64,000 nt of DNA, taken from positions 171,931-235,930 of the forward strand of contig JBAZKL010000001.1 in the NCBI GenBank assembly GCA_041650835.1. Direction: 5' to 3'. The DNA comes from Candidatus Omnitrophota bacterium (lineage in GTDB: Bacteria > Omnitrophota > Gorgyraeia > Gygaellales > Profunditerraquicolaceae). Position 1 is the stretch's first letter. Every line of letters starts with the position of its first letter. The translations under genes and the position numbers were made by a program. Positions 4,792 through 57,591 of the stretch are shown in pieces. Below the pieces are notes generated by a model. That model did not search any database. It was not told the origin of the DNA and worked only from the letters and a program-made list of their open reading frames with translations.

Positions 4792-4792
4792 G

Positions 4793-8506: not shown

Positions 8507-8518
8507 ATTTTACGTCTT

Positions 8519-12112: not shown

Positions 12113-12113
12113 A

Positions 12114-13400: not shown

Positions 13401-13412
13401 CGCCGGATATAC

Positions 13413-14336: not shown

Positions 14337-14366
14337 AAGGTTGATATTCCTGAAATCTTTTCCACA

Positions 14367-15437
14367 CTACAATTTATTGCTGTTCTTCCGGAAAAAAGGG
14401 TCATCGGCGAATCTGTCCCCCGTCGTATTAAACGCAACCGCGCGGCAGCCGTAAAAATGGCTATGCTTACCCTGCGCTCCGTTATATATATAGCCCCGGA
14501 TCTTTCTCACCTTTGCCGAAGACATAATTTCACTGAGGCTACGGCGCCGGGCATCGCCAAGGGTTTCCGCGAGATAGCCGCACATCTGGACTTTCCCGTC
14601 GCTGCCGACACAACAGCCGGTCTTAACAACCGAACACCCGAGCGCGGCGATCGGATAGGTATGCTCAGGGTCCCAGGAAAACCCGAATTCCTCGTCGATA
14701 AACCGCAGACGGATAAAAAGATCACGCAGTTTTTCAGGAGAAACCCTCAAGCCGTTAAAATATCTCTCGTTTTGATTCCGCGGCGGGACAAGTACTTGGA
14801 AATAGGGAATGATATTTCTGCGCCGGAACTCACCCCACATCTGCGGGATTTCAGCGTAATTACTCCGGCAGATCACCGTGTGGATAGACAGCCGGGACGG
14901 CTTTTTGGTAAAACCCGCTTGTTCAAGACAGCGCAGCCCCCGCAAGATTTTCCCTGAAGATCCTTTTACGCCGGTAAGCGAATCCTGAATACGCGGATCA
15001 AAACTGTTTAATTTACAGACGATCGTCACGTCAAGGCCATAGAGCACCTCAGCGGCGCGCTCATCGATCAGCGTATTATTGGTAAACACAACCACATTCA
15101 ACCCCAGGGAATTGGCATCCCGGATAAGCGCATAAATATCTTTGCCGGTCCGGTCATCCCTGTACATAAAGGGCTCTCCTTCCCCGATGATCGACAGGGA
15201 ACGAAGCCCCATTTCCGCGGCTTGAGACATAATCCGCGCAAAGCGCCCATACCCCAGCGCGCTACGGCTCCTTTGGCTGTAACAATACCGGCACTTCAAA
15301 TTACAGCCTACCGGTAATTTCAGGCTTAAACTTAAAAGCCGGTTCTTATCAATAGCTTCGCTGATCTGGCGCGCGGAAAAACTGCGGCTCAGCCGCGGCG
15401 GAGCATGCAATCTCTTTTTGTTACGCTCAGCACACAT
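14367..15437 (-). CDS. Radical SAM/SPASM domain protein
   Basis: CNLKCRYCY, IIGEGEPFMY, C-terminal SPASM (CCVGSDGKVQMCGYL...LGDARRRSLSEIM...C). Confidence 0.8.
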   Translation of the reverse strand: MCAERNKKRLHAPPRLSRSFSARQISEAIDKNRLLSLSLKLPVGCNLKCRYCYSQRSRSALGYGRFARIMSQAAEMGLRSLSIIGEGEPFMYRDDRTGKDIYALIRDANSLGLNVVVFTNNTLIDERAAEVLYGLDVTIVCKLNSFDPRIQDSLTGVKGSSGKILRGLRCLEQAGFTKKPSRLSIHTVICRSNYAEIPQMWGEFRRRNIIPYFQVLVPPRNQNERYFNGLRVSPEKLRDLFIRLRFIDEEFGFSWDPEHTYPIAALGCSVVKTGCCVGSDGKVQMCGYLAETLGDARRRSLSEIMSSAKVRKIRGYIYNGAQGKHSHFYGCRAVAFNTTGDRFADDPFFRKNSNKL

Positions 15438-38729: not shown

Positions 38730-39551
38730 TTACCCCTTTCTTCCTGAAAACAACGACAGCCCTGCGGATATGATCAACGCCAAACCAAAACAGGTAACCA
38801 CAGAGGCTCCGGTAGGTAAATCGCATTTGGCTGAAAAAAACAAACCAAAAACGCTTACTAAAAATCCTATTATCCAACCCAGAACGAGCCTTTTGAATAT
38901 ACCCTTTGTTAAAAGCATCGCGCAGGTTGCGGGAACAACAAGGTAGCTAAAAACTAAAAGCACACCGGCAATCTTTACTGAACTGGTAACTACAAAACCA
39001 AAGGTGATATAAAAAAGGAAGTCCCAAAGCACGACTTTAACCCCTTGCCTTCTGGCCTCCCCTGCATCTTGTGATATAAGAAAGAATCTCCGGCGAAAGA
39101 CAAAATGAAAAACCCCCACAGCTGAATAAATCAGCAGGATCTTTATAACCTCATGCCAATTGACATAGAGTATACTTCCCACGAGCATAGCCTGCAGCGC
39201 TTCATGGCCATGGGGCGCGCGGTCTAAAATCAAGATCGCCGCTGCGGAAAAAACCGCATAGGCTATTCCAATGATCGCCTCCTGCGGAACAACTTTTTCA
39301 CGGAAACGGCCTAAAGCAAATATCCCCGCCCCAACAAAGGTAAAAAACAGAGAAAAAATATAAGCCTGAATACTGGCAAGCTCATATCCAAAGTACAAGG
39401 CTAAAGTAGCTCCAAAGGCAGCGATCTGAGCCAAAGCTAGATCAACGAATATCACTCCCCTGGTGACGATATGCAGCCCTAAATAACAATGTATTCCTGT
39501 AAGGATTAAGCAGACTGCGAACGGCGCAGCCATCAAAATTAACATTTCCAT
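38730..39551 (-). CDS. Metal ABC transporter permease (ZnuB/MntB/TroC-like, ABC-3 family)
   Basis: 273 aa, 8-9 TM helices, directly downstream of the ZnuA-like gene. Confidence 0.7.
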   Translation of the reverse strand: MEMLILMAAPFAVCLILTGIHCYLGLHIVTRGVIFVDLALAQIAAFGATLALYFGYELASIQAYIFSLFFTFVGAGIFALGRFREKVVPQEAIIGIAYAVFSAAAILILDRAPHGHEALQAMLVGSILYVNWHEVIKILLIYSAVGVFHFVFRRRFFLISQDAGEARRQGVKVVLWDFLFYITFGFVVTSSVKIAGVLLVFSYLVVPATCAMLLTKGIFKRLVLGWIIGFLVSVFGLFFSAKCDLPTGASVVTCFGLALIISAGLSLFSGRKG

Positions 39552-39569
39552 GATTTCCGCTCTCCTCTT

Positions 39570-40484
39570 TTATGGGCGAAGGCCTTGCACAAGATTATCT
39601 ATGATTGTATCCATAAGGCTGAAATAATCTTGCGCCTCTTTTGTGCCGCCGACAGAATTCGGCACTACTGCTACTTTAACGCCTGCCCGCTCCGCAACAA
39701 ACCGCGCCGGCTTCTCATCGTAAAAAACCTCCATCAGGATCACCTTAACATTCTGCTGCTTAATGGTCTCAATAATCTTTCTCAAATGTTCCGGTGAAGG
39801 CGGTATACCCGGCTTAGGCTCAAGCTCACAGGCAATTTCCAGGCCGAACCTGTTAAAGAAATACGGCCAGCTACGGTGATAAATAGCGATCTTCTCTCCT
39901 TCAAACGGCGCCATTTTTGTCTTCCACCCAATCAGTTTCTCATCTATTTTATGGTTGAAATCAGAAAGGTTCTTATTAAAATATGCTTCATCTTCCGGAC
40001 GAAGCTCACCCAGGCGCTCCGCGATATTAAAAGCTATTATTTTAACGTTCAAGGGGTCAAGCCAATAATGCGGATTCCCCATAGGATGCACATCGCCCAT
40101 TGAACGGTCTATCTTGGTTGTCGTGGGGACTTCCAATAAAAGCGCTCCTTCTGATACATCAAGATGCCCAAGCTCACCGATCCTTATCTTTTGATTTCGG
40201 GAGCCGTCAATGATCGGTTCTTCATAGCCGATCTCCAGCTCTAAGCCGACACGGACAAAAAGATCGGCTTTCTTTGCCTTTATCATAAAAGACGGCTTTG
40301 CTTCCACGAAATGCGGGTCCTGGCAACCCATTGCCAGACTATCTACCTTGACTTTGTCTGCGCCGATAAATTCAGCTACAGATTTAAGATCAGCGGTTGT
40401 TGTAAGTATATTGATCTTGTCTTGAGCGAAGGAATACGAAGCTGACCCCGCCAATAAAACTAAAATAAAGAATATCTTTTTCAT
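39570..40484 (-). CDS. Metal ABC transporter substrate-binding protein (ZnuA/TroA-like)
   Basis: Signal peptide, metal-binding His residues, NPHYWLDP motif characteristic of TroA-family binding proteins. Confidence 0.75.
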   Translation of the reverse strand: MKKIFFILVLLAGSASYSFAQDKINILTTTADLKSVAEFIGADKVKVDSLAMGCQDPHFVEAKPSFMIKAKKADLFVRVGLELEIGYEEPIIDGSRNQKIRIGELGHLDVSEGALLLEVPTTTKIDRSMGDVHPMGNPHYWLDPLNVKIIAFNIAERLGELRPEDEAYFNKNLSDFNHKIDEKLIGWKTKMAPFEGEKIAIYHRSWPYFFNRFGLEIACELEPKPGIPPSPEHLRKIIETIKQQNVKVILMEVFYDEKPARFVAERAGVKVAVVPNSVGGTKEAQDYFSLMDTIIDNLVQGLRP

Positions 40485-40502
40485 TTTATTTCCTCCCAAG
40501 AA

Positions 40503-41771
40503 TTAATATTCGTGTTTTCTATGCGGCCCTAAACCAAAATTACATTGCAGCCAGACCTCATTGCTATCCTTACCATAATCCCGGTCCGTATGCTTAAATT
40601 GCAATCGCCAGAAACAATATTCACTCTGTGCGAAAGTAAATCCTCCTGAGAAAGCATTATCGCGCCTATCAGAATAATCCGGGAATTCCGAAAGATCATA
40701 TCTGCCGAAAACCGAACAGCGTTTTGCAAATTGATATTGCAATGAAGAATACATGCCCCAGGAATCAATTTGTTTCGGGCCTGAGCCTTCTTCAGCGATC
40801 ACGTTATCTTTTTGGCTGAAGAATGCCTCATTTTGGAAAACAAGAGACCTGTATAAACCTTCTTTTAAAGGTTTCCATTTATAGGTAAGGTCTATTCCTT
40901 CAAGAGTGGTCCTGTTTTTTCCATGGCCGTCATCATTAGGCCCCGTTGCTAAACTCCCTCCCAGCTCCAAGGTTGATACGTCATTGATATCAAAAAAACT
41001 TTTTAAGTGTGACACATAAACCATATTTCTGCCCTGGTTTCCGGCGAAACTGGCAGCATTGCGGTTATTCATAGCCTCCAATGAAAATTCCATATACTTA
41101 TCCCATGGATTAGGGATCAAGTAGTTTACTGAAACTCCCGGAAGGCTCATTCCCTCTTCACCAAAATAGTTGGCGAGGACATTGGGATAATCGACCCAGG
41201 GAAGTGAATGCAGGTGAAGCCTGTTTATCTTGCCGAAATTAGCTTTAAACTTTCCTATTTTGCCCTGTAGATCCTCAACAGGCAGATTGAGCAACGTCAA
41301 ATATCCTTCGCATAGTCCCACATGCCATTCTTCGCCTTCCGGCTCAACATGCAAAAATAGATCCGCCCTCGAGTAAGGGTCAACCGGGGCAGAAAAAGCC
41401 AATTCCGCCTGGCGCATCTTAAACTGGTCATATTGCTCATCGTCTTTTTTATCCGTACCATGATACGTAAGATCACCGATAACGCTTATATCGGGATTAA
41501 AGCTTTGAAAATACCTCCCTACTCTTGACTGCGAAGGCGGGACAACCTGAGCCGCATTGCCAGAAGCCGGCGTATTCTGCGGCAAGACCTGTTCAACTTT
41601 AGACTCAAGCTGATCGATCTTTCTTTTATAACGAGCCCTCATTTCTTCAAACTGTGATTTCAACAACTTTATCTCTTCTTTTAGATCATCCACTTCTCGA
41701 GGATCTGTTTCCGCGTATAAACAGGTAACCGCAAAAAACATGATCATAAAAAACACTAATATTCTTTTCAT
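40503..41771 (-). CDS. Putative outer-membrane beta-barrel (porin-like) with N-terminal coiled coil
   Basis: Signal peptide, ~40-aa coiled coil (DLKEEIKLLKSQFEEMRARYKRKIDQLESKVEQV), then alternating amphipathic beta-strand pattern rich in aromatics. Immediately upstream of znuA-like gene (3-nt gap). Confidence 0.4.
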   Translation of the reverse strand: MKRILVFFMIMFFAVTCLYAETDPREVDDLKEEIKLLKSQFEEMRARYKRKIDQLESKVEQVLPQNTPASGNAAQVVPPSQSRVGRYFQSFNPDISVIGDLTYHGTDKKDDEQYDQFKMRQAELAFSAPVDPYSRADLFLHVEPEGEEWHVGLCEGYLTLLNLPVEDLQGKIGKFKANFGKINRLHLHSLPWVDYPNVLANYFGEEGMSLPGVSVNYLIPNPWDKYMEFSLEAMNNRNAASFAGNQGRNMVYVSHLKSFFDINDVSTLELGGSLATGPNDDGHGKNRTTLEGIDLTYKWKPLKEGLYRSLVFQNEAFFSQKDNVIAEEGSGPKQIDSWGMYSSLQYQFAKRCSVFGRYDLSEFPDYSDRRDNAFSGGFTFAQSEYCFWRLQFKHTDRDYGKDSNEVWLQCNFGLGPHRKHEY

Positions 41772-41821
41772 AATTATGCACCTCCGCAGGACCGGTAATT
41801 AATGTATAAACGACGGCGATT

Positions 41822-42145
41822 TTATAAGAGGCGCAAAGAAGGCGGAGAGCGAAGGTATTGGATCATACAGCACGGTTTGGAGAAAAGAGCGGGGATATTG
41901 TCATAAAAGAACGCCTGAGGTTTTTTTAATAAAGATCCGAGGCAGACAAGAACACATAAGAACACAACGGTATTAATTATCGACACCCACGAACAGACAG
42001 GACAATCGGCATGGAAATCCCGATCGCCGTGATTATGAAAGAATTCCGCTCCTACGGAAAAAAAGGTAAAAAGGAGGACAAGGAAACAACAAATAGCTTT
42101 AAAACTTACATTCTTATTCATACGCATAAAATTAATGATACCCAT
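41822..42145 (-). CDS. Small membrane protein with His/Cys motif (HNHGDRDFHADCPVC)
   Basis: Two TM helices flanking a potential metal-binding H/C cluster. Weak gene call. Confidence 0.25.
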   Translation of the reverse strand: MGIINFMRMNKNVSFKAICCFLVLLFTFFSVGAEFFHNHGDRDFHADCPVCSWVSIINTVVFLCVLVCLGSLLKKPQAFFYDNIPALFSKPCCMIQYLRSPPSLRLL

Positions 42146-42221: not shown

Positions 42222-42944
42222 TCATAACTCTATGCTATCCCCCTCAACCGCTTTTATACAACGGCCGCCAAACTCATGACGCATCATTTTTTCGGCCCGC
42301 GTACCGGTGCAATGCATCGGGACGATCTTAGAAATACCGGCATCCTTAAGCTCCCGGATAATATTCATATTCACTTCATCCGGATTATCCTTTAAATGAA
42401 ACCCTCCCAGGACAGAATAAACCTTCTCTTTCTGGAATTGCTTTTGAACGGTATGAATAATATTAATAATTCCCGGATGAGCGCAGCCCGTAACTATGGT
42501 CAGGTTGTTTAAAGACTTAATAACCAGCGCCTGCTCGAAGATCCTGCGGTCAGCGCACGAAGCAAATATTTGCCCGCTGGAAAACATATCTTTATTAATC
42601 TCTGTCAGCGGCTCTACCTCAACGAGGCGCGCGCCAAAAGAGGCTATCCTGTCTTTTAATTCCTGTTTGAACCTCGGGCAAATATAAACAGTGATATCGG
42701 GCCGGTTTTGCAGCAAATACCATAACCCCGCGATATGGTCCCAATCGTCATGCGACAACACGATGTTCTTGATCTTTGCCGTATCAACACCGAATTTCCT
42801 AATATTATTCAGCAATATCCCCGGATCGCCGAAGGTATCAAAAAGCAGGTCATCACCGATGAGGAAAGAAACGCCCCAATGATGGATCAAACGTTCGAAT
42901 TTACTTGAGCCTGTAGCTAAAATCCTGATTTTCATATTCTTCAC
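42222..42944 (-). CDS. MBL-fold metallo-hydrolase
   Basis: HxHxDH-type motif (LSHDDWDHIAG) and downstream His/Asp ligands. Confidence 0.75.
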   Translation of the reverse strand: MKNMKIRILATGSSKFERLIHHWGVSFLIGDDLLFDTFGDPGILLNNIRKFGVDTAKIKNIVLSHDDWDHIAGLWYLLQNRPDITVYICPRFKQELKDRIASFGARLVEVEPLTEINKDMFSSGQIFASCADRRIFEQALVIKSLNNLTIVTGCAHPGIINIIHTVQKQFQKEKVYSVLGGFHLKDNPDEVNMNIIRELKDAGISKIVPMHCTGTRAEKMMRHEFGGRCIKAVEGDSIEL

Positions 42945-43034
42945 GAGCTATTTTACGCGGCACAACACATAAACGCTGCTTCCATCAATGCGCCGGCGGG
43001 AAGACTGGTCGGCGATAAGGCCCGCATTGACCTT

Positions 43035-43442
43035 TTACTTCTTGAATAGATAATCCGCTATCGCGCGATAAAGCGCGCTGACTGAAAGTATCGAACAGTG
43101 CAGATGATCATCGGGTAAACCCTTAAGTTTCTTGATCACTTCTCCCGCGGAAATAGAAAGCGCCTCTTTTACGGTTTTACCCCCTGCCAGCTTCGCCGCC
43201 ATGGCCGCGCAGGCCCTTGTAGCATGGCAACCTTCGGTATAATATTTAATTTCGGCGATCAAGTCATTTTCGATCACCAGATAAAACTCCATCGCGTCCC
43301 CGCATGGCCCCTTTACATGCGAAAAGCCCACCGGATCATTCATCCTTCCAAAATATCTTTGATTATTAATAAGGTCGATTACCTCCTGCGGATATTCAGC
43401 AAGCCCTTCCTGCCTGTTATTCATCATCGCAATCCCTCCCAA
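43035..43442 (-). CDS. NifU/IscU-like Fe-S cluster scaffold protein
   Basis: GPCGDAMEF..., YTEGCHATRAC..., HCSILSVSALYRAIADY match the three conserved Cys regions of IscU/NifU N-domain. Confidence 0.7.
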   Translation of the reverse strand: MGGIAMMNNRQEGLAEYPQEVIDLINNQRYFGRMNDPVGFSHVKGPCGDAMEFYLVIENDLIAEIKYYTEGCHATRACAAMAAKLAGGKTVKEALSISAGEVIKKLKGLPDDHLHCSILSVSALYRAIADYLFKK

Positions 43443-44272
43443 ATATTTTTCACTTCATCTGCCGCCGCACACGCCGCGTATTCGACAATGGTCTTACCTT
43501 CTACAAGCGCCTCCACGACCGTCTTATCAAAGGGAATCCTGCCTATGACCGGAATGCCTATCTCCCGGCAAAACGCCTCAATTTTTTCTGTGACGGCCGT
43601 ATTCAGGTCGTATTTATTCACTACCAGCTTGACCGGGATATTAAAATGCCTGGCTACATCCATAACGCGCCCGGCATCATGCAGGCCGGACAGTGTCGGC
43701 TCAGTCACGATTAAAGCGCAATCAACGCCCGACAGCGACGCGATAACCGGGCACCCTATACCAGGAGGGCCGTCAATGATCACGTATTCGAAACACTTCT
43801 TTTCCGACAATTCTTTGGCGATCTGCCTGATCTTCGCCACAAGCTTGCCGGAATTCTCCTCGGCTATCCCCAATTTAGCATGAACAAACGGGCCGTAACG
43901 AGTATCGGAAATAAACCACTCACCTGCCACGTTCTCTTCCATCCGGATGGCCCCATACGGACACACATGGCTGCAGAGAGCGCACCCTTCGCAGGAAAAA
44001 CGCTCAACCGCAAAATCATCACGTATAGCCCCAAATCTGCATACAAAGATGCATTTACCGCATTTCTTACAAAGTTCCTTATCAATAACCGCGGCTTGCC
44101 CGCTTCTAAACTCATGGCGTTCTTTTACCGTAGGATGCAACAAAAGATGCAGGTCCGCCGCGTCCACGTCGCAGTCAACCATGACTTTATTTTTAGCCAA
44201 AGCGGCAAGCGCCCCCGCAACCACAGTCTTGCCTGTGCCGCCTTTTCCGCTAATGACGACTATTTGCTTCAT
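43424..44272 (-). CDS. MinD/ParA-superfamily P-loop ATPase with 2x[4Fe-4S] ferredoxin insert
   Basis: Deviant Walker A SGKGGTGKT; CKKCGKCIFVC and CEGCALCSHVCPYGA ferredoxin motifs. Confidence 0.75.
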   Translation of the reverse strand: MKQIVVISGKGGTGKTVVAGALAALAKNKVMVDCDVDAADLHLLLHPTVKERHEFRSGQAAVIDKELCKKCGKCIFVCRFGAIRDDFAVERFSCEGCALCSHVCPYGAIRMEENVAGEWFISDTRYGPFVHAKLGIAEENSGKLVAKIRQIAKELSEKKCFEYVIIDGPPGIGCPVIASLSGVDCALIVTEPTLSGLHDAGRVMDVARHFNIPVKLVVNKYDLNTAVTEKIEAFCREIGIPVIGRIPFDKTVVEALVEGKTIVEYAACAAADEVKNIWEGLR

Positions 44273-45119
44273 TCTTTATTCCACGAATATTGATATATAA
44301 ATTAATAAATTTATCCTGATAAGAAGCGTTCTTTTCCACGATAGGTATACCCTCAGAACAACTTACTGCTATTTCTCTGCTAAAAGGGAGCTTCATTAAA
44401 ATAGGGATACGCTCTGCCCTGCAATAATCCTCCACCTTGCCGTCTCCGATATCAGAGCGATTAACAACCACACCAAATGATATCTGTAATTTTCGTAATA
44501 CCTCTACAGCCAAAATCAGATCATTTAAACCGAATGGCGTTGGCTCTGTCACTAATACGCAGTAGTCGCTCCCCTTAACTGCCGTGATAACCGGACACGA
44601 AGTCCCGGGAGGAGCGTCAATAATCACCGTCCTTGTAGGATTTACATAACTTTTCACCTGCCGGATCAAAGGCGGAGACATTGCCTCCCCTATATTAAGG
44701 CGGCCATGAATAAACTGCATATTGCCTTTCGATCCGATCTCTATTGTTCCGATCTCTTTATTAACTTCTTTTATTGCCCCTTGAGGACAAAGCAAACTAC
44801 ACGCCCCGCATCCATGACAGAGATGCGGAAAGATCAAAACACTCCCCTTGTGAGCGTTATTACCCGGTAGCACTGCGATAGCATGGTACGCGCATACCTG
44901 CCGGCACTTACCGCAATACGTGCACTTGTCCTCATCATCCTCCGGCACCGGAATAAACGCCTTCACTTCATCATTTATGCGTGGCTTAATAAACAAGTGC
45001 GCGTTCGGCTCCTCTACGTCGCAATCAAGAAGCTGGATATTCTTAAGCGACAAGGCCAAATTAACCGCGATCGTCGTTTTTCCTGTCCCGCCTTTTCCGC
45101 TGGCGATTGAAATGATCAT
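44250..45119 (-). CDS. MinD/ParA-superfamily P-loop ATPase with 2x[4Fe-4S] ferredoxin insert (paralog)
   Basis: ASGKGGTGKTT; CTYCGKCRQVC and CHGCGACSLLCPQGA. Confidence 0.75.
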   Translation of the reverse strand: MIISIASGKGGTGKTTIAVNLALSLKNIQLLDCDVEEPNAHLFIKPRINDEVKAFIPVPEDDEDKCTYCGKCRQVCAYHAIAVLPGNNAHKGSVLIFPHLCHGCGACSLLCPQGAIKEVNKEIGTIEIGSKGNMQFIHGRLNIGEAMSPPLIRQVKSYVNPTRTVIIDAPPGTSCPVITAVKGSDYCVLVTEPTPFGLNDLILAVEVLRKLQISFGVVVNRSDIGDGKVEDYCRAERIPILMKLPFSREIAVSCSEGIPIVEKNASYQDKFINLYINIRGIKNEANSRH

Positions 45120-45748
45120 ATTAATTCCTGCCTCACCGGCAGGCAGGGATGGTATGCAATTAAGACGTCTTGAAATTTACTGCTTGCTTTATTAACCCTA
45201 AAGCCCTTGCCTGCTAAATACTCCTCTATATCGGATAACGTGGTTTTGCCGACCTCATGCTTATTGCCTTCGCTGGCATGGATTTTATCCATAAGCGCCA
45301 AGCCATCTTTGGTAAAATCGCTTAGGATCAGCTTGCCTTTAAAAGAAAGCACGCGCAACAACTCATCGATCACCTTATAAGGATTGATCAAATGATGCAG
45401 GGTATTGACCGAGAAGACAGCGTCAAAAACTCTATCCTGGAAGCTTAAGGTTTCTCCGTTTTCAATACGAAAATCAACCTGCCTGTCTAAGCCGAAATAC
45501 CTGAGGTTGAGTTTCGCGAAAGCCTGCTCGGTTTCCGAGATATCAAAGGTGATAAAACTGTAGCCGGCCTTTGCCAACTCGAGCGCAAAGTGGCCCTTCC
45601 CGGTCCCGGCTTCAAGGATATCGCCGTAAAGAGGCCGGGCCTTCTCTAAAATAAAAGCCCGCTCTTTATCGACATCATAACCAAGACTGCTATATAATGC
45701 CTTACGCTCTAAATAGCGTTTATGATTTGTTAAAAGCGCTTCTTCCAA
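45116..45748 (-). CDS. Class I SAM-dependent methyltransferase
   Basis: Motif I ILEAGTGKGHFALELAK, motif post-I DISE, 210 aa. Confidence 0.7.
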   Translation of the reverse strand: MEEALLTNHKRYLERKALYSSLGYDVDKERAFILEKARPLYGDILEAGTGKGHFALELAKAGYSFITFDISETEQAFAKLNLRYFGLDRQVDFRIENGETLSFQDRVFDAVFSVNTLHHLINPYKVIDELLRVLSFKGKLILSDFTKDGLALMDKIHASEGNKHEVGKTTLSDIEEYLAGKGFRVNKASSKFQDVLIAYHPCLPVRQELI

Positions 45749-45753
45749 AACGG

Positions 45754-46122
45754 CTATTTTCCCATCCCGAACTTAGAGCCGACACTCGGCCTTTCGGTCA
45801 TCTTTAACTTCCCGCTCTTATAAGTATCAACGGCCTCTTTTACCGTACCGGATACATTGGTATAGATCTGGATACCCGCCTTATCCAGGATCTCAAAGGC
45901 ATTAGGCCCGACATTACCGGTAAGCACTACCTTTGCGTCTTTAGAGCTTACCATCTGGGCTGATTGGATCCCCGCGCCTCCCTGGAACTGCGCGTTAGCA
46001 TTCTCCTGCGCTTCAAACTTACCGGTGTCCGTGTCAAAAAAGATAAAATTCCGGCACCTGCCGAAACGGGGATCTACCGTAGAATCCGGATTTTTCCCTT
46101 CCGAGGTAATACATATCTTCAT
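45754..46122 (-). CDS. NifX/NafY/NifB-C-terminal-like (dinitrogenase FeMo-cofactor-binding family) protein
   Basis: MKICITSEG...VDPRFGRCRNFIFFD pattern and ~120 aa length typical of this family. Confidence 0.65.
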   Translation of the reverse strand: MKICITSEGKNPDSTVDPRFGRCRNFIFFDTDTGKFEAQENANAQFQGGAGIQSAQMVSSKDAKVVLTGNVGPNAFEILDKAGIQIYTNVSGTVKEAVDTYKSGKLKMTERPSVGSKFGMGK

Positions 46123-46137
46123 TTTGGGCCTTTCTTC

Positions 46138-46518
46138 TTAATGACAACTACCGCCGCCGTGGCCGTGATCCTTGCACGCATCAAGACCGCCCAAGGCGTT
46201 ATTCATAAGATCATCAAGCGCTTTTTGCACATTGCCCGCATATCCAAACACTGCAACCCCGGCTTGAGCAAATTTCTGCTGAGCCCCCATTCCCATACCG
46301 CCGGCAATAACATGGGTGATTTTATGCTTTAATATCTCATCAACTGCAACGCATCCTCCACCGCCATGCACTGCGGTATTCGGCAGAATGCGCGTATGAA
46401 TAATCTTTTTCTTATCTTTATCAACATCGGCCAATAAGAAATACCTGCACTGCCCAAAATGCGCGCAGACATTACCGTCTACTCCATTTTCATCTTCCAA
46501 TACGACTCCCACCCTCAT
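46138..46518 (-). CDS. NifX/NafY-like cofactor-binding family protein (second copy)
   Basis: MRVGVVLED...HFGQCRYFLLADVD, Gly-rich C-terminus. Confidence 0.65.
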   Translation of the reverse strand: MRVGVVLEDENGVDGNVCAHFGQCRYFLLADVDKDKKKIIHTRILPNTAVHGGGGCVAVDEILKHKITHVIAGGMGMGAQQKFAQAGVAVFGYAGNVQKALDDLMNNALGGLDACKDHGHGGGSCH

Positions 46519-46551
46519 CTTTAAACCCTCCCTTTTCTGTAGAAACTGCAG

Positions 46552-46803
46552 TTATTTTTTATCGGACCCCTGCCGGCCTTGAGCGAAACCAAAAGGCATT
46601 CCCTTTTGTCCCCTCATCCAGCCGGGAAGCCCTGTGGCATAGAAACAATTACGTCGTCCTCTGCCGCCTCTTATCCCAACAGCCCCTTTTCCGGATTGCA
46701 TTCCAACCCCGTCAACGGGCATAGCGCAATAACCCCTTCCGCCGCCCGTCATTGCACCTTGACCTCCCGGTCCTGTTCCGTCAAAACCTGGCATCGTTAC
46801 CAC
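46552..46803 (-). CDS. DUF5320-like Gly-rich small protein
   Basis: MPGFDGTGPGGQGAMTGGGRGYC... matches the DUF5320 pattern (MPxxDGTGPxGxGPMTGRGxGYC) that commonly sits beside NifX-like/MinD-Fd genes. Confidence 0.55.
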   Translation of the reverse strand: MVTMPGFDGTGPGGQGAMTGGGRGYCAMPVDGVGMQSGKGAVGIRGGRGRRNCFYATGLPGWMRGQKGMPFGFAQGRQGSDKK

Positions 46804-46858
46804 CTTCCCTTCTCTTAATGAAAATCATTTTCATTAAAATACAAAAAAAATAAAACCC

Positions 46859-47332
46859 TTAGTTTTTTCCCTCACATTGTTCACATATACCGTAAAACTG
46901 TATCAGGTGATTAGTGATCTTAAACTTGTATTTCTGCCCCAATCCCTTCTCTGTTTGATTAAGCAGCTCGACTTCATCATCAATAAAGTCAGTGTAATCG
47001 ATGACCTTATTGCATTGCGTGCACACCAGGTGGTGATGATGATGCGCTCCCTTGGGGCCTTCGGCAAACTCATAGCGCGCCCTGCCATCGCCAAAATCAA
47101 GCTTATATACCATACCCAGGTTCGATAATACATCCAGCGTCCGGTAAACGGTAGTCAAACCTACCCCGGGGAACTTTGGATGGACCTTCATATAAATATC
47201 TTCGGCGCTCAGATGGCCTTCTTCCTTGGATAAAATATCAAGGATCGCCTCGCGGCCCAACGTAAGCCTATACCCGCAATCCCTGAACTTCCCATGCCAC
47301 CAGCCCTGCCCCTTACATTCACCTCTATGCAT
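46859..47332 (-). CDS. fur: Fur-family metalloregulator
   Basis: DNA-binding N-domain (…SAEDIY…TVYRTLDVL), C-terminal HHHHLVCTQC...CEQC metal sites. Start set at the second Met (47330..47332), because the promoter -10 lies at 47367..47372. Confidence 0.75.
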   Translation of the reverse strand: MHRGECKGQGWWHGKFRDCGYRLTLGREAILDILSKEEGHLSAEDIYMKVHPKFPGVGLTTVYRTLDVLSNLGMVYKLDFGDGRARYEFAEGPKGAHHHHHLVCTQCNKVIDYTDFIDDEVELLNQTEKGLGQKYKFKITNHLIQFYGICEQCEGKN

Positions 47333-47350
47333 GTAACGCCCCTTATTGGA

Positions 47351-47369
47351 AATGATTACCATTATTAAT
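47351..47369. promoter_or_regulatory. Fur-box-like palindrome (minus-strand reading TAATAATGGTAATCATT)
   Basis: 14 of 15 match to core of GATAATGATAATCATTATC. Sits immediately downstream of, and overlapping, the -10 of the fur promoter. Confidence 0.5.
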
Positions 47370-47395
47370 ATACATCACCGGACTGTTTTTGTCAA
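47367..47395 (-). promoter_or_regulatory. Sigma70-type promoter of fur: TTGACA-N17-TATATT
   Basis: Minus strand: TTGACA (47390..47395), 17-nt spacer, TATATT (47367..47372). About 35 nt upstream of the fur ATG at 47332. Confidence 0.5.
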
Positions 47396-47525: not shown

Positions 47526-50500
47526 TCATCCGATCTTCACTTCCACTGAATGCTCTACCCGATCATCAATGAGCTGTACCGCCATTTCCTTCTGCGCGAC
47601 ACCATCCACCTCAATAGACGTCAAACGGCCTGACGGTCCCAAACACACAAATGTAATGTGATAAAAAGTCTCCCTGTATCGGTAATGCAGCTTCCAAGAA
47701 GTCCAGCCCGCGGGAAGACACGGCTCGAAATAGATCCTGTCCACTTTCAACCGAATCCCCAGTAAATACTTCACGATAAGCTGATACATCCAACCGGCGG
47801 ATCCGGTGTACCATGTCCATCCACCGCGTCCGGTGAGGCCGGCAGAGGCATACACATCCGCCGCCATCACGAACGGCTCCACCTTGTAAACAGCGCACTT
47901 ATCCGCAGTATCGCAATGACGCACCGGGTTGATCATATCGAACAACTCCCAGGCCCGTTTTTTATCACCCAATACCGCGAACGCGATCGCCGCCCAGATC
48001 GCAGCATGCGTGTACTGTCCCCCGTTCTCCCTCACTCCGGGGACATAGCCTTTGATGTATCCCGGGTTAGGAAAAGCCTTATCAAAAGGAGGATCGAACA
48101 ATCTCACGAGCGCGTGCTTCCTGTCGACAAGCTGCCGGTCCACCTGCTCCATGGCCTTTCGGGCTCTGTCCCCCTGAGCCGCGCCCGAAAGAACCGCCCA
48201 GGATTGCGGGATCGAATCGATCCGGCATTCGCTGTTCAAGGAAGAACCCAAAGGTTCCCCATTGTCAAAATAGGCCCGGCGATACCATTGCCCGTCCCAG
48301 CCATACTTTTCAATATTCTTGGAAAGCTTCTCTGACTCCTCAACACAGAATTCCGAAAAAACCTTATCCTCACGCTGAGCTGCCAGGGCCGCCATCGACT
48401 TAAGGACATCGAAAAGAAAAAAAGCAAGCCAAACGCTTTCGCCTTTTCCTTCGCGCCCGACCAGATTCATCCCGTCATTCCAGTCACCGCTTCCCATAAG
48501 AGGAAGGCCATGAACGCCGAACTGCAAACCTCTTTTCACGCTTAAAACACAATGTTCATAAAGTGTCCCGGTACGAGCGGAGATTCTCGGCATATCGTAG
48601 TAAGATTCTTCTCCCTGCTTGACCAGGGGCCCTTCCAGGAACCCAGCAATTTCATCAAGGATCCCTGTATCCCCGATATTTTCGACATACAGGCAGGTCA
48701 CCAACGGAAGCCATAAATAATCATCCGAACACAGACTACGGACCCCCCGGCCGGAAGGCGGATGCCACCAGTGCTGCACATCTCCCTCCACAAACTGGCG
48801 CGCGGCAAAGCTCAGCAATTGTTCCCGGACCATTTCCGGCTTCGAATGGAGGAGCGCCATCACATCCTGGAGCTGGTCCCGGAAGCCGAAAGCCCCGCCG
48901 GATTGATAAAAACCGCTTCGGCCCATGAGGCGTGAGCTTATGAGCTGATATTGCAGCCATCCGTTGACGAGAAAATTGATCGAGGCATCGGAGGTTTCCA
49001 CATACACAACGCCCAGGGTACGTTTCCAGTATTCCCACACCCTTTCAAGCTCCTGACGTGCCGCCTCGACACCGCCAAAACGCCGGACGAGGTCCCGCGC
49101 CTCGTCCATCGTTCTCCCGGATCCAAAAGTAAAAACTATCTCTTTCTGCTGACCATCCTCTATTTCAAACTTCACCTGCGTGGCAACGCACGGATCAATC
49201 CCCGCGCCCACTTTTCCGGAAAGCCTATCCCTTCGCATCACGGAAGGCGATCGCATAGTGCCGTTCCTTCCGATAAATTCGATCCGGTCCCCGGTCACGA
49301 ATCGCGCCGGTTCGCTCACATCCAAAAAAACAGCGCGGGCAGGGAATTCCTTGTTATAAGGATTACGGGCGAACAGGGCGCCGCTTTTAGGGTCGACCTC
49401 GGTAAGGATATGCATGTGGTATTTATCCCGAGAAGGCCCCATGACCAGCTCATAGTACGACGTCACGGACAGGCGCCTGCGGCGGCCGGAAATATTCCTG
49501 ATCTTCAGGGCAGAGAATTTGACTCGGTCCTCCAGGGAAACGAATACCGTTAACTCCGAAACAATCCCGTTTTCGACATGCTCAAAAACGCTGTACCCGA
49601 ATCCATGGCGCGAGGTGTAACCGGCCTCGCCCCGAGCGGGTAGCGGGGTCGGTGACCAAAATCTCCCGCTCTCCTCATCGCGAATATAGAGCGCCTCTCC
49701 CGAAGCGTCCGTAACAGGATCGTTCTTCCAAGGCGTTAAACGAAATTCATGCGCGTTCTCGCTCCAGGTAAAAGCGCTGCCGCTTTCGGAAACCACCGTG
49801 CCGAAATGCCGGTTCGCCAACACATTTACCCACGGAGCGGGAGTGGTCTTCGAGCGCGAGGTCATGATCACATATTCCCGACCATCCCCGGTAAACCCTC
49901 CCAAGCCATTAAAGTAAACCAGATGAGAGCGCTCTGCGGGATCCCGGGGCTCTTCTTCCGGATCATCTTTCCTGGTGGGAACAAATGGAAGAAAATGCGC
50001 CTTGGGCTGTGTCATATCCGTCAACTGCTCCGTCAGCGTACCCCCGCGGTCAGAAATAATGATCCGCGCGGCCGTTTGCATGAGGATCCGGTCCTCATCC
50101 GACATCTGATCGGCGCGCCTTAAAAAAATACCTCCGTTACGGCCGGCTTGTTCCTTGGTATTGGCAACGATCAACCCGCTGATCCTCTCACCCAGACTAT
50201 CACGATAAATAGAACTATCTTCATTCCATATAAGAAGATCGACCGCCAGTCCTTTCATCTGCCAATAGGCATGGGCTTGCACCATCTGCACGACGAGATC
50301 GATATTGTCCTGATTTTCGATGCGGACGAGGACGATCGGGAGGTCCCCCGAAATACTGTATCCCCAAAGATCGGGCTGGCCCCGGTTATTCCGCCGCAAA
50401 ATACTCGCGCTCGCCCGCCAGGCGGGATTGGCGTACACAATAGCGCTGGTCAGACGGCCGTAGAGCTGAGCGGCCGCCTCCGTCGCATTGATCTGTTGCA

Positions 50501-53500
50501 AAACAACCTGCCCGTGGGTCCACGCCAGGTTAAAAACGCGATCAGCCAGATTCCGGTCCCTGTATTTTTCCATGAGCGCCTGCGCGGCTTCCCGGCTCTC
50601 GCATATTCCGGTTACATAATCGATCACCGCCGATTCATCCGGCTCCAGTTCGATACGGCTGCGTATGGAAACGATTGGATCGAGCACAGAACCTTCGCTG
50701 TCCGAAAGACGTCCGCTCTCCATCATCGCCGCGGGATCAGCCACCGTGCGGCCTCGCCCGATGAATTTGCCGCGGTCAGTTTCATAGGAGGCGCCCTCGA
50801 CCGCATTCCCGTGAACGGCCATCAGATGCAGCATCAAGGGAAACGCTTCTTTGTCGGAGCGCGGCCGCCTCCGGCAAAGGATCGCCTGATGGGACCTGAT
50901 AATTTCGGTCTGGACGAACAGATTACTGAATGTCCGGTGGGCCTGGTCGCTTGCCGGATCATTCAAAACGACTTCCGCGTAACTGGTAATTTCTATGATA
51001 CGCCTATTGCGGGACTGGTTGGTGATCGTCACCCGGCGAAGCTCGATATCATCTTCCGGAGAAACCGCGATCTCGGTATGCGTCTCGATCTGATGGTCCC
51101 TGCGTTTAAATTCTACCCACGCCTGGGAAAACAAGGCTTCATAATACTTAGGGGTTTTTTGTGCCGGCTGATACGCCGAAGACCAGAACTTGCCGGACTC
51201 CGCGTCCCTGAGATAAATAAATGTCCCGTCATTATCCAACGCCGAATCCTCGCGCCAGCGCGTCACGGCGATATTTTGCCAGCGGCTGTACCCGCCTCCG
51301 GCGTTGCTGACCATCACATGGTAGCGGCCGTTGGAAAGCGGATGGACCTCCGGCACCGGAGTTTGAGGGGTTGTGAACACCCTCAAAAGGGTTTCCCTGT
51401 CCCCGAATTTCCTAAGCATTCCGGTTACTTCGAAATCGTAGAGGAAAGGCTCGATGGTGGGAACCCGCTCTTGAAGAAGAAGTTCGGCTGATTTAAACAT
51501 CGGCTCGGCAAGAAAACGTCTTTGCATAGGCCGGTCCAGAAGCACGCAGGCCAGAGATAACAAACTCATACCCTGATGATGCGCCATAAAAGATTTAACG
51601 ATCGCCCGGGTTTCATCCGGAGCAAGGCGCGCGGGCGTGTAATCAATCGCTTCATAGAAGCCATAGAGCCCTCCGGCTCCTTCATCGAATAAGCGTTCGA
51701 GATTTTCGCAAGCCTTCTCCGGCGCCACCATCAAAGCCAGCATCGAAGCATAGGGAGCCACGACAAGATCCTCGGCGAGGCCACGCTTGAAACCCATGTT
51801 CGGAATTCCGAACGACTGATACTGATACACCTTGGTCGCGTCGACCTTATTGTAACCGGACTCTGAGATCCCCCAGGGAATATTGTTCTCGGCCGCATAG
51901 CGGATCTGGCCGCTGACCGCGGCCTTGCAGGTCTCATCCAGCAGGCTCCCCGCATAGGTCGGCATCACCAGGAGCGGCATGAGATACTCAAACATCGACC
52001 CACCCCAGGAAACCAAAACAGGATCTCCTTCGCATTTTGCGATCATCCTGCCGAGCTTGAACCAATGATCCTGGGGCATTCTCCCCTGGGCGATGGCGAC
52101 AAAACTGCAAAACCTGGCCTCGGAGGCCAAAAGGTCATAACAACCCCGCTCCATCTTGTGCTCGCTGACATTGTATCCGATGGAAAGAAGATGGGTATTT
52201 TTATCATAGAGGAATTCATATTCTATACCGGAGATCTCGTTACAGCGCAGCACGATATAATCGATGGCTTTGATCCTTTCGGTGGAACGTGTCCCGGCAT
52301 TCTTGATCGTGTCACGAAGCTTCAAAAACCATTCGCGGACCTTTTTCGACTCATCATCTATGACAGGCATGGCCCTCAGGATCTCCTCGATAAGCGGGAC
52401 CAGCTTCTGCTCAAGCCTCGCTACTTCCCCAAGTATGGGGATCTCGTCCAAATACCGCAAAGCCTCCCTAAGCTGAACAAGCCGTTCCTGCTGATGTTCA
52501 TCCCCCCCATCCCACATCCCCGGTATTTCCGGCGCGAGCAAGATCCAGGGAGCGATAAAAGACATATCCTCCAGAAAGTCGTAATACTGCCGCTCGAAGG
52601 CGCGGGCCCATTTTTTGCTTTGCTCAGAATGCTTATGGTCCAGACCCGTTAAAACCTTTGCAATATCCGTGGAAAGTTGGCGTAAAAACGTATAGATCTC
52701 CGAAAGACGCGCGGGGGACAACGCGCACTTTTCCTGAAATTGCTTGATCTTTTCGGGAAATTGCGCCAGGGATCCGGCGACATCACCCTTGCAGCTTTTC
52801 TCAAGCTCGGCCACACTTTGACGCAGTATCTCCAGGGTATCTCTCAGCCCGTCAAATATCTTCGCGGAGACGATCTTCTGAAGGTTCAATTCCGCAAGCC
52901 CCGAACGCAGGACCAGCAAATGGCCAACCAAGTTCCCGCTATCCACCGATGAGATATACAGAGGCGTCAGGGGCTTAAGCGTCTGGGTGTCGTACCAATT
53001 GTAAAAATGCCCCCTGAATCTTTCCATAAGATTCAGAGTATCAAATGTTTTTTCTGTCCTGTTAAACATCATCCCCATGGAAATATATCCGAAATCATAG
53101 GCGGTCAAATTTGCAAGAAGCGACAGGCCGATATTCGTCGGCGAAGTCCTATGGGCCAGAACGCTGACAGGCTCTTCCTGAAAATTGTCAGGCGGCAGCC
53201 AATGGTCATTCTCGGTAACAAAATTCTCAAAGAACGCCCAGGTCATCCGGGCAAGCTTCCTTAAGAAAAGTACCTGCGACTGGGAAAGCATGATCTTCCG
53301 GGGAGAGGAAGGCTGACTGATCATATACGCCGCCGCGGGAGAAACGAACCACAGGCTTAAAAAGATCAAAGCCAATCCGTCGAAGCGCGGGAATAGCCCC
53401 GAAAAAAGAACCATCAGCACAACGGCGGCAACCGGCGTAAACCACATGCTCCTGTAGTAGCCTGAAATATGGGTCGATGAGGAAACTTCCGATTCAAGGG

Positions 53501-56652: not shown

Positions 56653-57591
56653 CTATCGTAACGTCAGTTTATCAAGTATCTGATACAAAACCCCTCCTGC
56701 GACGTCAAGTTTGGGGAACATATATTTGCGCGCGGAAATCGTAATTTCAGTCTTATTGTCTACGCCTTTCCTGAATATAAGCGCCACCATCGCTCCATGA
56801 ATATTGGCTTTGATCACTCCATCTGACGCAAGATCTTTAGTGATTTTACCCATACGCTTTACCACCTCGAGACTTACTTTATAGACATGTTCAAAACCGG
56901 CATCGACGGTTTGCTGCACATAATCTTTACCTATAAATGTCGCTGCTACGGCAACCGGCAGCACCGCTACACCCGTTAACAGAGCAGCGCCGTAGATCTT
57001 GGCGTTCTTTATTGCGGCAGCCTTCATAGGTTCTGCAAGCACAAGCAAAGCCAACTGTTGAGCAGAGGGAACACCCTTATAACTTTTATGCCTATTAACA
57101 TCATAGACTCGCACACCGGGTTGGGTGCCGGCCGTGTAGTCCTTGTAAACAATCTTGCCGATGCTTAAGGTGAGGAGATCGATTTGCATAGGAGTAGACG
57201 GAGAAGACTTTGATTCTTTCGCTATCTTTAATGAATCCACATTGAGTTTGCCTTCAGTATTTTTTGTAAGCCCCATCTCTTTTAATTCGATCTCCACAAG
57301 TAAAAAATGACGCTTCTGCTTAAATAAGGTCGCTCGATCATATATGACTTTTATTTTAGGACAAGATACCAGTATGCCTTCAGGGAAGCCTCCGGGATTA
57401 TACATTTTAAATCCGGATATGTGTATAGTTGAGCTTAAAAGATTCAATGAGAAACCGTCCATATGTACCGGTGCTCCTGTGATGCGCGAGGCGGCCGTTG
57501 TTACCACGGATTTAATGATCAGATTTTTAAAAATTGAGATACACGCCAAAGAAATGAACACTATCACGAGCACTATAAGAAATTTCTTCAT
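56653..57591 (-). CDS. Membrane-anchored hypothetical protein
   Basis: N-terminal TM (LIVLVIVFISLACISIF), beta-rich periplasmic portion; family not recognised. Confidence 0.4.
   Translation of the reverse strand: MKKFLIVLVIVFISLACISIFKNLIIKSVVTTAASRITGAPVHMDGFSLNLLSSTIHISGFKMYNPGGFPEGILVSCPKIKVIYDRATLFKQKRHFLLVEIELKEMGLTKNTEGKLNVDSLKIAKESKSSPSTPMQIDLLTLSIGKIVYKDYTAGTQPGVRVYDVNRHKSYKGVPSAQQLALLVLAEPMKAAAIKNAKIYGAALLTGVAVLPVAVAATFIGKDYVQQTVDAGFEHVYKVSLEVVKRMGKITKDLASDGVIKANIHGAMVALIFRKGVDNKTEITISARKYMFPKLDVAGGVLYQILDKLTLR

Follow-up and report, generated by a model that had tools for sequence, protein, structure and literature searches.

An orange-protein-type gene cluster of Candidatus Omnitrophota accompanied by a Fur-family regulator and candidate Fur operators

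We analysed a 64-kb window of a Candidatus Omnitrophota genome (contig JBAZKL010000001.1) and, within it, a module of nine genes that follow each other in close succession on the - strand (47362..42222). The module encodes a Fur-family regulator, a small DUF5320 protein, two NifX-like proteins (NifXa and NifXb), a methyltransferase, two MinD-type ATPases with ferredoxin domains (MinD-Fd1 and MinD-Fd2), an IscU/NifU-type scaffold and a metallo-β-lactamase (MBL)-fold protein, and it carries two candidate Fur operators (Table 1). Judged from these genes, the set is the Omnitrophota version of the partly studied orange protein (ORP) system, apparently wired to Fur instead of to a redox-sensing activator. 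The nine-gene inventory of an initial annotation was correct, as a Pfam search reproduced all nine domain assignments.

Every sizeable open reading frame (ORF) in the window lies on the - strand. Hence, the shared direction of the nine genes, which had been put forward in the initial annotation, is real but uninformative, and operon status must rest on spacing and on conservation with different flanks. The spacer between fur and the DUF5320 gene is 64 bp, and those from the DUF5320 gene to the methyltransferase gene are 33, 15 and 5 bp. From the methyltransferase gene through the NifU-like gene there are overlaps of 4, 23 and 19 bp, followed by a gap of 90-99 bp before the MBL gene. The more likely start of fur is ATG 47332: an AAGGGG ribosome-binding site precedes it, and the resulting protein has 157 amino acids (aa), as in relatives. 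For the DUF5320 gene the more likely start is ATG 46794.

Table 1. Features of the fur-ORP module in the 64-kb window
Feature	Position	Strand	Evidence or remark
Sigma-70-like promoter of fur, TTGACA-17-TATATT	47395..47367	-	11/12 consensus matches, consensus match only
Operator 1, TGGTAATCATTTCCA	47347..47361	.	Fur-box-like inverted repeat between -10 element and fur ribosome-binding site
Fur-family regulator, 157 aa	46859..47332 (ORF open from 47362)	-	PF01475 3e-32
Operator 2, 23-bp palindrome TTAATGAAAATGATTTTCATTAA	46815..46837, 15-bp core 46819-46833	.	
DUF5320 small protein, 80 aa	46552..46794	-	PF17253, E 4.9e-07, 31.3 bits, cutoff 27
NifXa, Orp5-like Cys/His NifX-like ('Di-Nase')	46138..46518	-	PF02579 3.8e-19
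NifXb, orange-protein (Orp8/ORP)-type NifX-like carrier	45754..46122	-	PF02579 1.7e-25
Class I S-adenosylmethionine (SAM)-dependent methyltransferase	45116..45748	-	Methyltransf_11 6.9e-19
MinD-Fd1	44250..45119	-	Pfam CbiA/ParA + Fer4
MinD-Fd2	43424..44272	-	Pfam CbiA/ParA + Fer4
IscU/NifU-N-type scaffold	43035..43442	-	NifU_N 7.5e-24
Small MBL-fold protein, 240 aa	42222..42944	-	Lactamase_B 1.7e-06

The best solved-structure match of NifXb is 2WFB, the Desulfovibrio gigas orange protein (E 4.7e-20), over residues 2-112, which is near full length; NifXb also matches MTH1175 (8.8e-18). We compared the window proteins by BLASTP with loci L086 and L088 (L numbers denote individual loci), which hold close relatives of D. 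gigas ORP, and not with the sequences of D. vulgaris Hildenborough (DvH) themselves. The four core proteins pair one to one with those of L086/L088 by clear best hits. NifXb has ORP as best hit, at 41-45% identity to ORP and close relatives, and no hit reported to the other paralogue; NifXa is 32-34% identical to the second NifX-like protein, again with no hit reported to the other one. Of the ATPases, MinD-Fd1 shares 44-45% identity with the first paralogue and 32-33% with the second, and MinD-Fd2 shares 48-52% with the second and 32-33% with the first. Two loci, those of the proteins closest to 2WFB (at 74% and 68% identity), read ORP - MinD-Fd - MinD-Fd - NifX(HFGHC) - Zn-ribbon. Both NifX-like proteins and both ATPases also match the NCBIfam model of MrpORP (NF041136), with 37-60 bits against a cutoff of 450.

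NifXa carries the motif HFGxC (H20, C24) and C115, and its orthologues keep H20 in 29/29, C24 in 26/29 and C115 in 29/29. A corresponding motif, CXHFGHCE...CDH, is reported for MrpORP in its Fe-S-binding Di-Nase domain (PMC6345978). Among NifXb-type proteins no set of ligands is conserved, which would be expected of a non-covalent cluster carrier. In NifXb about 13 residues follow the domain; NifXa has a short Cys/His tail at its end.

The DvH ORP cluster consists of orp5-orp4-orp3 and orp7-orp8-orp9 (DVU2103-DVU2109). The paralogous ATPases Orp3 and Orp4, each with two [4Fe-4S] motifs, co-purify with Orp8, and MrpORP transfers Fe-S clusters to Orp3-Orp4-Orp8 (PMC6345978). The orp operons are driven by sigma54, integration host factor (IHF) and the redox-sensing, Fe-S-bearing activator OrpR (PMC8359166, PMC3897727). 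For the Desulfovibrio complex a role in cell division has been proposed, and its function is unsettled (PMC3897727, PMC6345978). As in DvH, the window has adjacent paralogous MinD-type ATPases with two [4Fe-4S] motifs each (the counterparts of Orp3/Orp4) and an orange-protein-type NifX-like protein (Orp8) together with a Cys/His NifX-like Fe-S protein, and the cluster is confined to anaerobes while being spread over bacteria and archaea. Unlike DvH, the window lacks MrpORP and has one operon rather than two divergent ones; it has a sigma-70-like promoter and Fur operators in place of sigma54, OrpR and IHF (sigma54 promoters were not searched for); and it adds the IscU-like scaffold, DUF5320, the SAM methyltransferase and the MBL-fold protein. 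No gene for a sigma54 enhancer-binding protein adjoins the module; fur occupies that place. Hence, the statement of the initial annotation that the gene set has no experimentally assigned function does not stand, since its core pairs one to one with loci around relatives of D. gigas ORP and has the architecture of Orp3/Orp4/Orp8/Orp5 in D. vulgaris, a complex whose co-purification, Fe-S content, maturation by MrpORP and redox control by sigma54/OrpR are published (PMC6345978, PMC8359166, PMC3897727). As for the prospect, raised in the same annotation, that the set might turn up in a characterised system, half of it came true: the system is known and partly characterised, and its physiological function is open.

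The NifX-like pair had been described as NifX/NafY-type. Both proteins do belong to the NifX-like family PF02579, but they are of the ORP and Orp5 types and not NifX or NafY proper: their PDB matches are ORP, TM1290, MTH1175 and PH0822, with NafY not among them. NifX/NafY and the C-terminal domain of NifB share with the window proteins PF02579 and the non-covalent binding of complex metal-sulfur clusters; in contrast to nitrogenase systems, nifB, nifEN and nifHDK are absent from the scanned window ORFs and from the modules of relatives. We discarded a nitrogenase reading on these grounds (no nif context, ORP-type best matches). The absence of nitrogenase genes was confirmed more broadly, as no nif, hydrogenase or carbon monoxide dehydrogenase genes were found among the window ORFs scanned with Pfam.

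The kinship of NifXb with ORP raises the question of which metal is handled. As isolated, the orange protein binds a Mo-Cu cluster, the physiological relevance of which has been questioned in the field. A module that sequesters or builds Mo/W-Cu-S species, for detoxification or for cofactor supply (thiomolybdate or thiotungstate-copper handling), would fit the 41-45% identity noted above, the homology of Orp8 to proteins with a non-covalent [S2MoS2CuS2MoS2] cluster (PMC6345978, citing Bursakov 2004, Carepo 2014) and the suggestion that A. fulgidus homologues serve molybdoenzyme synthesis (PMC3949148). However, molybdate or tungstate transport, molybdopterin and copper genes are absent from the scanned window ORFs and from the modules of relatives, and the regulator is Fur-like, not ModE- or CsoR-like. 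We give such a role very little probability.

Both ATPases carry the deviant Walker A motif GKGGTGKT with its signature lysine, the DCD and PPGxxCP motifs, and an inserted ferredoxin domain with 2x CxxCxxCxxxC, whose eight cysteines are invariant across both paralogues. The two are 37% identical to each other. MinD-Fd1 is identical to a protein of a Candidatus Omnitrophota metagenome-assembled genome (MAG) and has many relatives in the phylum at 73-89% identity. Its AlphaFold2 model (predicted local distance difference test, pLDDT, 90; predicted template-modelling score, pTM, 0.84) is nearest, by Foldseek, to archaeal MinD, FleN/FlhG, ParA/Soj, Mrp-type HypB and ApbC; no solved structure with a ferredoxin insert was found. 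With Mrp/NBP35/ApbC and Mrp-type HypB these ATPases share the deviant Walker A MinD-like fold and a role in metal-centre delivery; unlike Mrp, they lack the Mrp CxxC motif and contain the inserted two-cluster ferredoxin domain. Weak NCBIfam matches of MinD-Fd2 to NifH, BchL and CfbC, and the cysteine after Walker B (PPGxxCP), prompted us to consider a NifH-like ATP-dependent reductase, a reading we set aside and keep as no more than a lead, since NifH is not in the Foldseek top 50 for MinD-Fd1. Two cysteines outside the ferredoxin insert, C33 (in DCD) and C175 (in PPGxxCP, just past Walker B), are invariant in both paralogues; they could ligate a subunit-bridging cluster. By analogy with other MinD/Mrp proteins, we infer that the ATPases undergo ATP-dependent dimerisation, likeliest as a heterodimer, and that their ferredoxin domains supply or withdraw electrons.

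The MinD-like fold also invites the idea of a positioning or cell-division device, in which the ATPases are spatial regulators and the metal-cluster proteins are redox or iron sensors that gate division. ORP proteins have been placed putatively in septum positioning, with MrpORP found at a cell pole, and an amphipathic helix of MinD type is reported for the C-termini of Orp3/Orp4 (PMC3897727, PMC6345978). That the nearest folds of MinD-Fd1 are of MinD, FleN/FlhG and ParA type agrees with this. Against it, the folds of Mrp-type HypB and ApbC are just as close, and these proteins deliver metals or clusters; the partners that recur (Mrp-like, IscU-like, NifX-like) belong to Fe-S biogenesis; and neither MinC/MinE nor division genes lie beside the module among the scanned ORFs or in the gene tables of relatives. 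A positioning device is improbable in our judgement.

We scanned one genome per species and obtained 80 loci with the ATPase at 50-73% identity, belonging to Omnitrophota, Chloroflexota, Desulfobacterota, Bacillota, Ignavibacteria, Acidobacteriota, Bathyarchaeia, Methanocellaceae, ANME-1, Altiarchaeota and others. Mapping the window proteins onto all loci with phmmer gave a non-redundant set of 82, bacterial and archaeal. The ATPase paralogues are adjacent in 78/82 loci and a NifX-like gene is present in 75/82, followed by an Mrp-like gene (41/82), small Gly/Arg-rich proteins (40/82), a NifU-like gene (34/82), MBL and Fur (14/82 each) and the methyltransferase (10/82). The cluster has a fixed core (the ATPase pair and the NifX-like carriers), a variable shell and lineage-specific additions. 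Omnitrophota relatives with unrelated flanks keep the order Fur - DUF5320 - NifX - NifX - (small Cys-rich protein) - methyltransferase - MinD-Fd - MinD-Fd - (NifU-like) - (Mrp-like) - MBL - (rubrerythrin) - DsrE. The Mrp-like protein of relatives is encoded by a separate gene (L004) or fused to NifX, the MrpORP architecture (L050, L061). Two proposals of the initial annotation are borne out by this survey: the module is a conserved unit of metal-sulfur-cluster proteins, kept in relatives while the flanks differ, and profiling the co-occurrence of its families finds the core again in 82 loci of anaerobic bacteria and archaea.

Among the shell genes, the scaffold has a complete U-type ligand set, read from its translation (C47, D49, C72, H115, C116). 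It scores 100.6 bits with TIGR03419 against a cutoff of 187.9 and is also below the cutoff of TIGR01999; hence, it is not an equivalog. The MBL-fold protein, present in loci of several phyla including that of a Methanocellaceae archaeon, matches 7DCK (1.6e-30), TM1679 (3H3E; 2.6e-28) and 2P4Z (4.6e-25) in the PDB, entries whose depositors' names give no specific function. All NCBIfam matches of the methyltransferase are far below the cutoffs; its loci are mostly Omnitrophota, making it a lineage-restricted addition.

The DUF5320 protein contains 25 Gly, 7 Arg, 4 Lys and 7 aromatic residues including 1 Trp, with a pI of 10.6. It starts with the motif MPGFDGTGP, covers profile positions 1-62/99 and lacks the coiled coil with which the Pfam model ends. 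Of 1.84 billion cluster representatives, 483 belong to the family, nearly all of them stand-alone, and relatives of the window protein are strongly W/G/R-rich. A second family of small proteins (about 55-80 aa) starts with MPRGDGTGP, continues with a Gly/Arg stretch and ends in a six-Cys zinc ribbon, CxCPxCG...PC...CPxCG. It adjoins MinD-Fd1 in 35/82 loci (for example L004:7155-7364, L010, L012, L015-L018, L021-L023, L025, L028, L030-L032, L036-L039, L043-L046 and others) and is absent from the window; its N-terminus scores 26.1 bits with the DUF5320 profile, just below the cutoff of 27. In L011 and L063, a Gly/Arg plus zinc-ribbon tail is fused to a NifX-like domain. Hence, the small proteins appear functionally tied to the carriers. 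Locus L086 encodes, beside its close relative of D. gigas ORP, a 112-aa protein composed mostly of GQGRGQG repeats (7414-7752) and, in the same neighbourhood, a DUF134 protein with a Cys/Arg-rich C-terminal tail (6942-7355), so that Gly/Arg-rich small proteins seem to recur around ORP clusters in different sequence families. In the literature we found nothing relevant for DUF5320, COG1149/COG1433 or Fur-linked NifX-like genes.

In the PDB, the regulator is most similar to the Bacillus-type Fur 9IRE (115 bits); PerR reaches 84 bits and Zur 62 and 31. The top NCBIfam model is likewise Bacillus-type Fur (NF051892), with 140 bits against a cutoff of 220, followed by PerR (91) and Zur (41). The recognition helix reads TVYRTL where B. 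subtilis PerR has TVYNNL, placing an Arg where PerR has Asn; Arg here is associated with Fur boxes, Asn with PerR boxes. The His-rich, metal-sensing segment HHHHH-LVC-x2-C (HHHHH-LVCTQC) aligns with HHHDH-LIC-x2-C of E. coli Fur, and both CxxC pairs, which make up the structural Zn site of Fur, are present (LVCTQC, ICEQC); these motifs also align with those of Bacillus-type Fur. On these comparisons, the regulator is to be placed with Fur rather than with PerR or Zur. A Zur reading, prompted by ZnuA-like and ABC-3 genes downstream of the module, was rejected: the Fur scores far exceed those of Zur, no box precedes these genes, and they are not conserved at the module.

The regulator has an N-terminal extension, MHRGECKGQGWWHGKFRDCGYR (window 47332..47261), which in the subfamily takes the form MPRGxCxGQGWWHGKFRGCGYR; it is Gly/Arg/Trp-rich with 1-2 Cys and is conserved in L001, L004, L006, L008, L009, L012, L014, L011, L027 and L074. 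Its stretch WWHGKFRGCGY is without counterpart in E. coli Fur and B. subtilis PerR. The 'MPRG..G' start of the extension resembles the N-termini MPGFDGTGP of DUF5320 and MPRGDGTGP of the zinc-ribbon family. Module-linked Fur proteins, from Omnitrophota, a Syntrophaceae, a Clostridia, a Eubacteriales and a Puniceicoccaceae MAG, share 48-94% identity with the window Fur, compared with about 33% for E. coli Fur and B. subtilis PerR and 27-33% for other Fur paralogues near the cluster (L025, L038, L052, L073 and a catalase-linked one in L001). Hence, a distinct Fur subfamily accompanies the cluster; going by these identities, it travels with the ORP cluster in at least five phyla, and this link is, with the attachment of DUF5320-type small proteins to NifX-like carriers, the most useful new point of our analysis. 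In the Omnitrophota relative L001 (10830-12689), a catalase gene and another gene of the Fur family (27% identity to the first) come after the module, an arrangement that resembles a PerR-catalase pair. Across the loci, the Fur subfamily lies near the cluster in about 12; DUF134 regulators do so in about 20 (mostly Chloroflexota, Ignavibacteria and archaea), and sigma54 enhancer-binding proteins in about 12 (mostly Desulfobacterota).

The two operators are Fur-type 7-1-7 inverted repeats. Operator 2 has the core TGAAAATGATTTTCA at 46819-46833, within a perfect palindrome of 23 bp whose end lies 25 bp before the DUF5320 start. No other perfect match to TGAAAATNATTTTCA occurs in the 64 kb, and 0/100 shuffles gave any. 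Operator 1 is a weaker copy with 3 mismatches to TGAAAATNATTTTCA and lies just past the -10 element of TTGACA-17-TATATT, the best sigma-70-like promoter match of the region. The half-site, TGAAAAT, is one base off the B. subtilis Fur half-site TGATAAT. Reportedly, in work by Fuangthong and Helmann from 2003, a G in the half-site separates Fur from PerR boxes, and TGAAAAT keeps that G.

Both positions recur in relatives. A box with 0-2 mismatches precedes fur at the same position in L004, L006, L008, L009, L012, L024, L027 and L074; pre-fur boxes occur in Omnitrophota, Puniceicoccaceae and Eubacteriales loci, and most Fur-linked loci carry the TGAAAATNATTTTCA palindrome there. The position of operator 2 is occupied with 0-3 mismatches in L001, L004, L008, L009 and L024, all Omnitrophota, and with 0-2 mismatches in L001, L004, L008 and L009. 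From the window background, 0.68 sites with ≤2 mismatches are expected per 64 kb and, by our own arithmetic, far fewer than 1 in these short regions. The proposal of a Fur-family regulator directly upstream with its own Fur box is therefore upheld, as fur adjoins the module and the operators are conserved in relatives. The Fur-box searches that the initial annotation suggested upstream of 46803 and 42944 had unequal outcomes: the first gives the perfect box at 46819-46833, but none precedes the MBL gene (42944). We also considered whether Fur might control further genes of the window and rejected this, as the search yielded weak sites only (2-3 mismatches) in unrelated places. Operator 1 would serve the autoregulation of fur.

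Taken together, the region is probably an ORP-type operon for the handling of Fe-S and metal-sulfur clusters, repressed by a dedicated Fur at sufficient iron and derepressed at low iron. With enough Fe(II), a Fur dimer would occupy both operators and switch off fur and the module; as iron falls, the operon would be derepressed, in parallel to the suf operon of E. coli, which Fur represses. The IscU-like protein would build Fe-S clusters, and the ATPase heterodimer, through ATP-driven dimerisation and electrons passing via its ferredoxin domains, would load or unload metal-sulfur clusters on the NifX-like carriers, while the cationic DUF5320 peptide may help to hold anionic cluster species. The function of the module would be the assembly and trafficking of such clusters; the effector, the regulatory sign, the formation of a heterodimer and the direction of cluster flow are likewise what the arrangement suggests. 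The guess of the initial annotation (assembly or trafficking of a cofactor under iron control, without nitrogenase) was reasonable, and iron control, as read from the regulator and its boxes, is plausible. The E. coli sufABCDSE operon encodes Fe-S biogenesis proteins, including a scaffold and a P-loop/ABC-type ATPase, and is on when Fur-Fe(II) repression is lost in iron starvation. Its likeness to the window is a functional analogy, with no sequence relation beyond Fur and the U-type scaffold fold; unlike suf, the module has no cysteine desulfurase, and its ATPases are of the MinD type with ferredoxin inserts.

Several points weigh against a Fur-repressed ORP operon. None of the nine genes encodes a cysteine desulfurase (aminotransferase class V), the one DegT-type aminotransferase of the window belonging to a sugar cluster, and there is no Mrp-like gene in the 64 kb. 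It is solely the position of the operators that suggests repression rather than activation. No promoter was detected before the DUF5320 gene; operator 2 may act via an internal promoter or as a roadblock. Operator 2 is conserved within Omnitrophota only, and the pre-fur boxes outside this phylum are partly weak (3 mismatches in L011 and L014). The regulatory sign is the opposite one in P. furiosus, where IssA, which belongs to the same domain family, is produced at abundant iron only (PMC5524996). Lastly, the regulator reaches the cutoff of none of the NCBIfam equivalog models for Fur, and its N-terminal extension is unusual; hence, its effector could be something other than Fe(II).

This last point leads to a regulator with a Fur fold that is not an iron sensor and responds instead to redox state, peroxide, another metal or Fe-S cargo via its N-terminal extension, as an analogue of OrpR; such a regulator would be compatible with the operon model above. 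The sub-cutoff scores and the conserved WWHGKFRGCGY stretch would fit it, as would the confinement of the boxes to the fur-module region in the 64 kb, which suits a dedicated local regulator, and the Desulfovibrio orp operons do follow redox potential via an Fe-S-bearing activator (PMC8359166). However, the His-rich region aligns with E. coli Fur, both CxxC pairs and the Fur-type Arg of the recognition helix are present, and the half-site lies one base from that of Bacillus Fur and keeps the G said to distinguish Fur from PerR boxes. In addition, the second Fur-family gene beside the catalase gene in L001 is the likelier PerR. We regard a sensor of something other than iron as possible but rather doubtful.

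The NifX-like domain and the Gly-rich peptide also recall IssA of P. furiosus (PF2025), which stores thioferrate and consists of a NifX-like domain, modelled on MTH1175, and a Gly/Arg/aromatic tail, with a predicted pI of 10.7 (PMC5524996). IssA and the window have in common the IPR003731/PF02579 domain, a Gly-rich, cationic, aromatic disordered segment and a link to iron status. The module might thus be one for Fe-S storage and mobilisation, in which the ORP-type carrier and DUF5320 hold polymeric anionic Fe-S (e.g. thioferrate) in the manner of IssA, and the ATPases and the IscU-like protein load or release it by iron status. The match of NifXb to MTH1175, the 11 Arg+Lys, Gly content and pI of DUF5320 with its W/G/R-rich relatives, the NifX-like fusions in L011 and L063, and the small Gly/Arg proteins that accompany the core in 40/82 loci all speak for storage. 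The difficulty is that the tail of IssA belongs to the same polypeptide, whereas the window NifX-like chains have no long cationic Gly/aromatic tail; the candidate tail acts in trans as the separate DUF5320 protein, or is fused in other taxa (L011, L063), and its likeness to that of IssA is compositional. We rejected DUF5320 as a homologue of the IssA tail, given that its 483 representatives are mostly stand-alone and that the ten long top matches we checked are tandem DUF5320 repeats with no NifX fusion, leaving compositional similarity alone; the window protein, moreover, has only 1 Trp. The regulation also disagrees: operators at or after the promoter suggest expression at low iron, so that the operon looks iron-repressed, while stores normally fill at high iron, and IssA is made at high iron and sulfide (PMC5524996). 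Storage and mobilisation is therefore unlikely as the role of the module. A bolder form, to which we assign a distinctly small chance, would make the module a bacterial equivalent of ferritin in anaerobes, an iron-responsive system that stores and releases inorganic iron-sulfur: the carrier and DUF5320 would hold the polymer, the ATPases would load or dissolve it, and the Fur extension would sense this cargo together with Fe(II). If true, this would give the ORP complex a function and would extend thioferrate-type storage from Thermococcales to many anaerobic phyla.

Nothing around the module suggests a host pathway. Directly upstream of fur lies a gene for a 2929-aa cyclic beta-1,2-glucan-synthase-like protein with GH94 and GT2 domains (47526..56315, - strand). 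In the relatives L004 and L005, a DUF748 gene is found shortly upstream of fur, with a single 68-aa gene between them. In the window, the far side of the synthase gene has a weak match to DUF748 (56653..57591) that, with 37.7 bits, stays under the cutoff of 50. Hence, the synthase gene may be an insertion. On the 3' side of the MBL gene (38730..42145, - strand) follow genes for a 107-aa membrane protein with a HNHGDRDFHADCPVC motif, then a 422-aa protein, possibly a porin, whose N-terminus resembles a signal peptide and which matches no Pfam family, and a ZnuA-like binding protein and an ABC-3 permease without an adjoining ABC ATPase. None of these four genes has a Fur box before it, and none is conserved beside the module in relatives.

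Farther away, positions 189..15437 (- strand) hold a polysaccharide/glycan cluster unusually rich in radical SAM enzymes (189-2225, 7520-8506, 8519-9577, 9574-10695 and 14367-15437, the last with a SPASM domain). Its other products are GT2 glycosyltransferases, PMT_2 proteins, a flippase, a thiamine pyrophosphate (TPP) enzyme, a DegT aminotransferase and a sulfatase. The remainder of the window also encodes an ABC-2/HlyD/OEP exporter and Mla proteins.

The ORP complex has been studied since 2011 without a settled function. It spans anaerobic bacteria and archaea, with its ATPase 50-73% identical between phyla and even between domains. The link to Fur, with its conserved operators, is a clue that the output of the system matters for iron economy, and a Fur protein travelling with the cluster points to Fe-S cluster supply or mobilisation rather than to cell division. 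DUF5320 and the related zinc-ribbon Gly/Arg-rich small family, in turn, gain a genomic home beside the NifX-like carriers.

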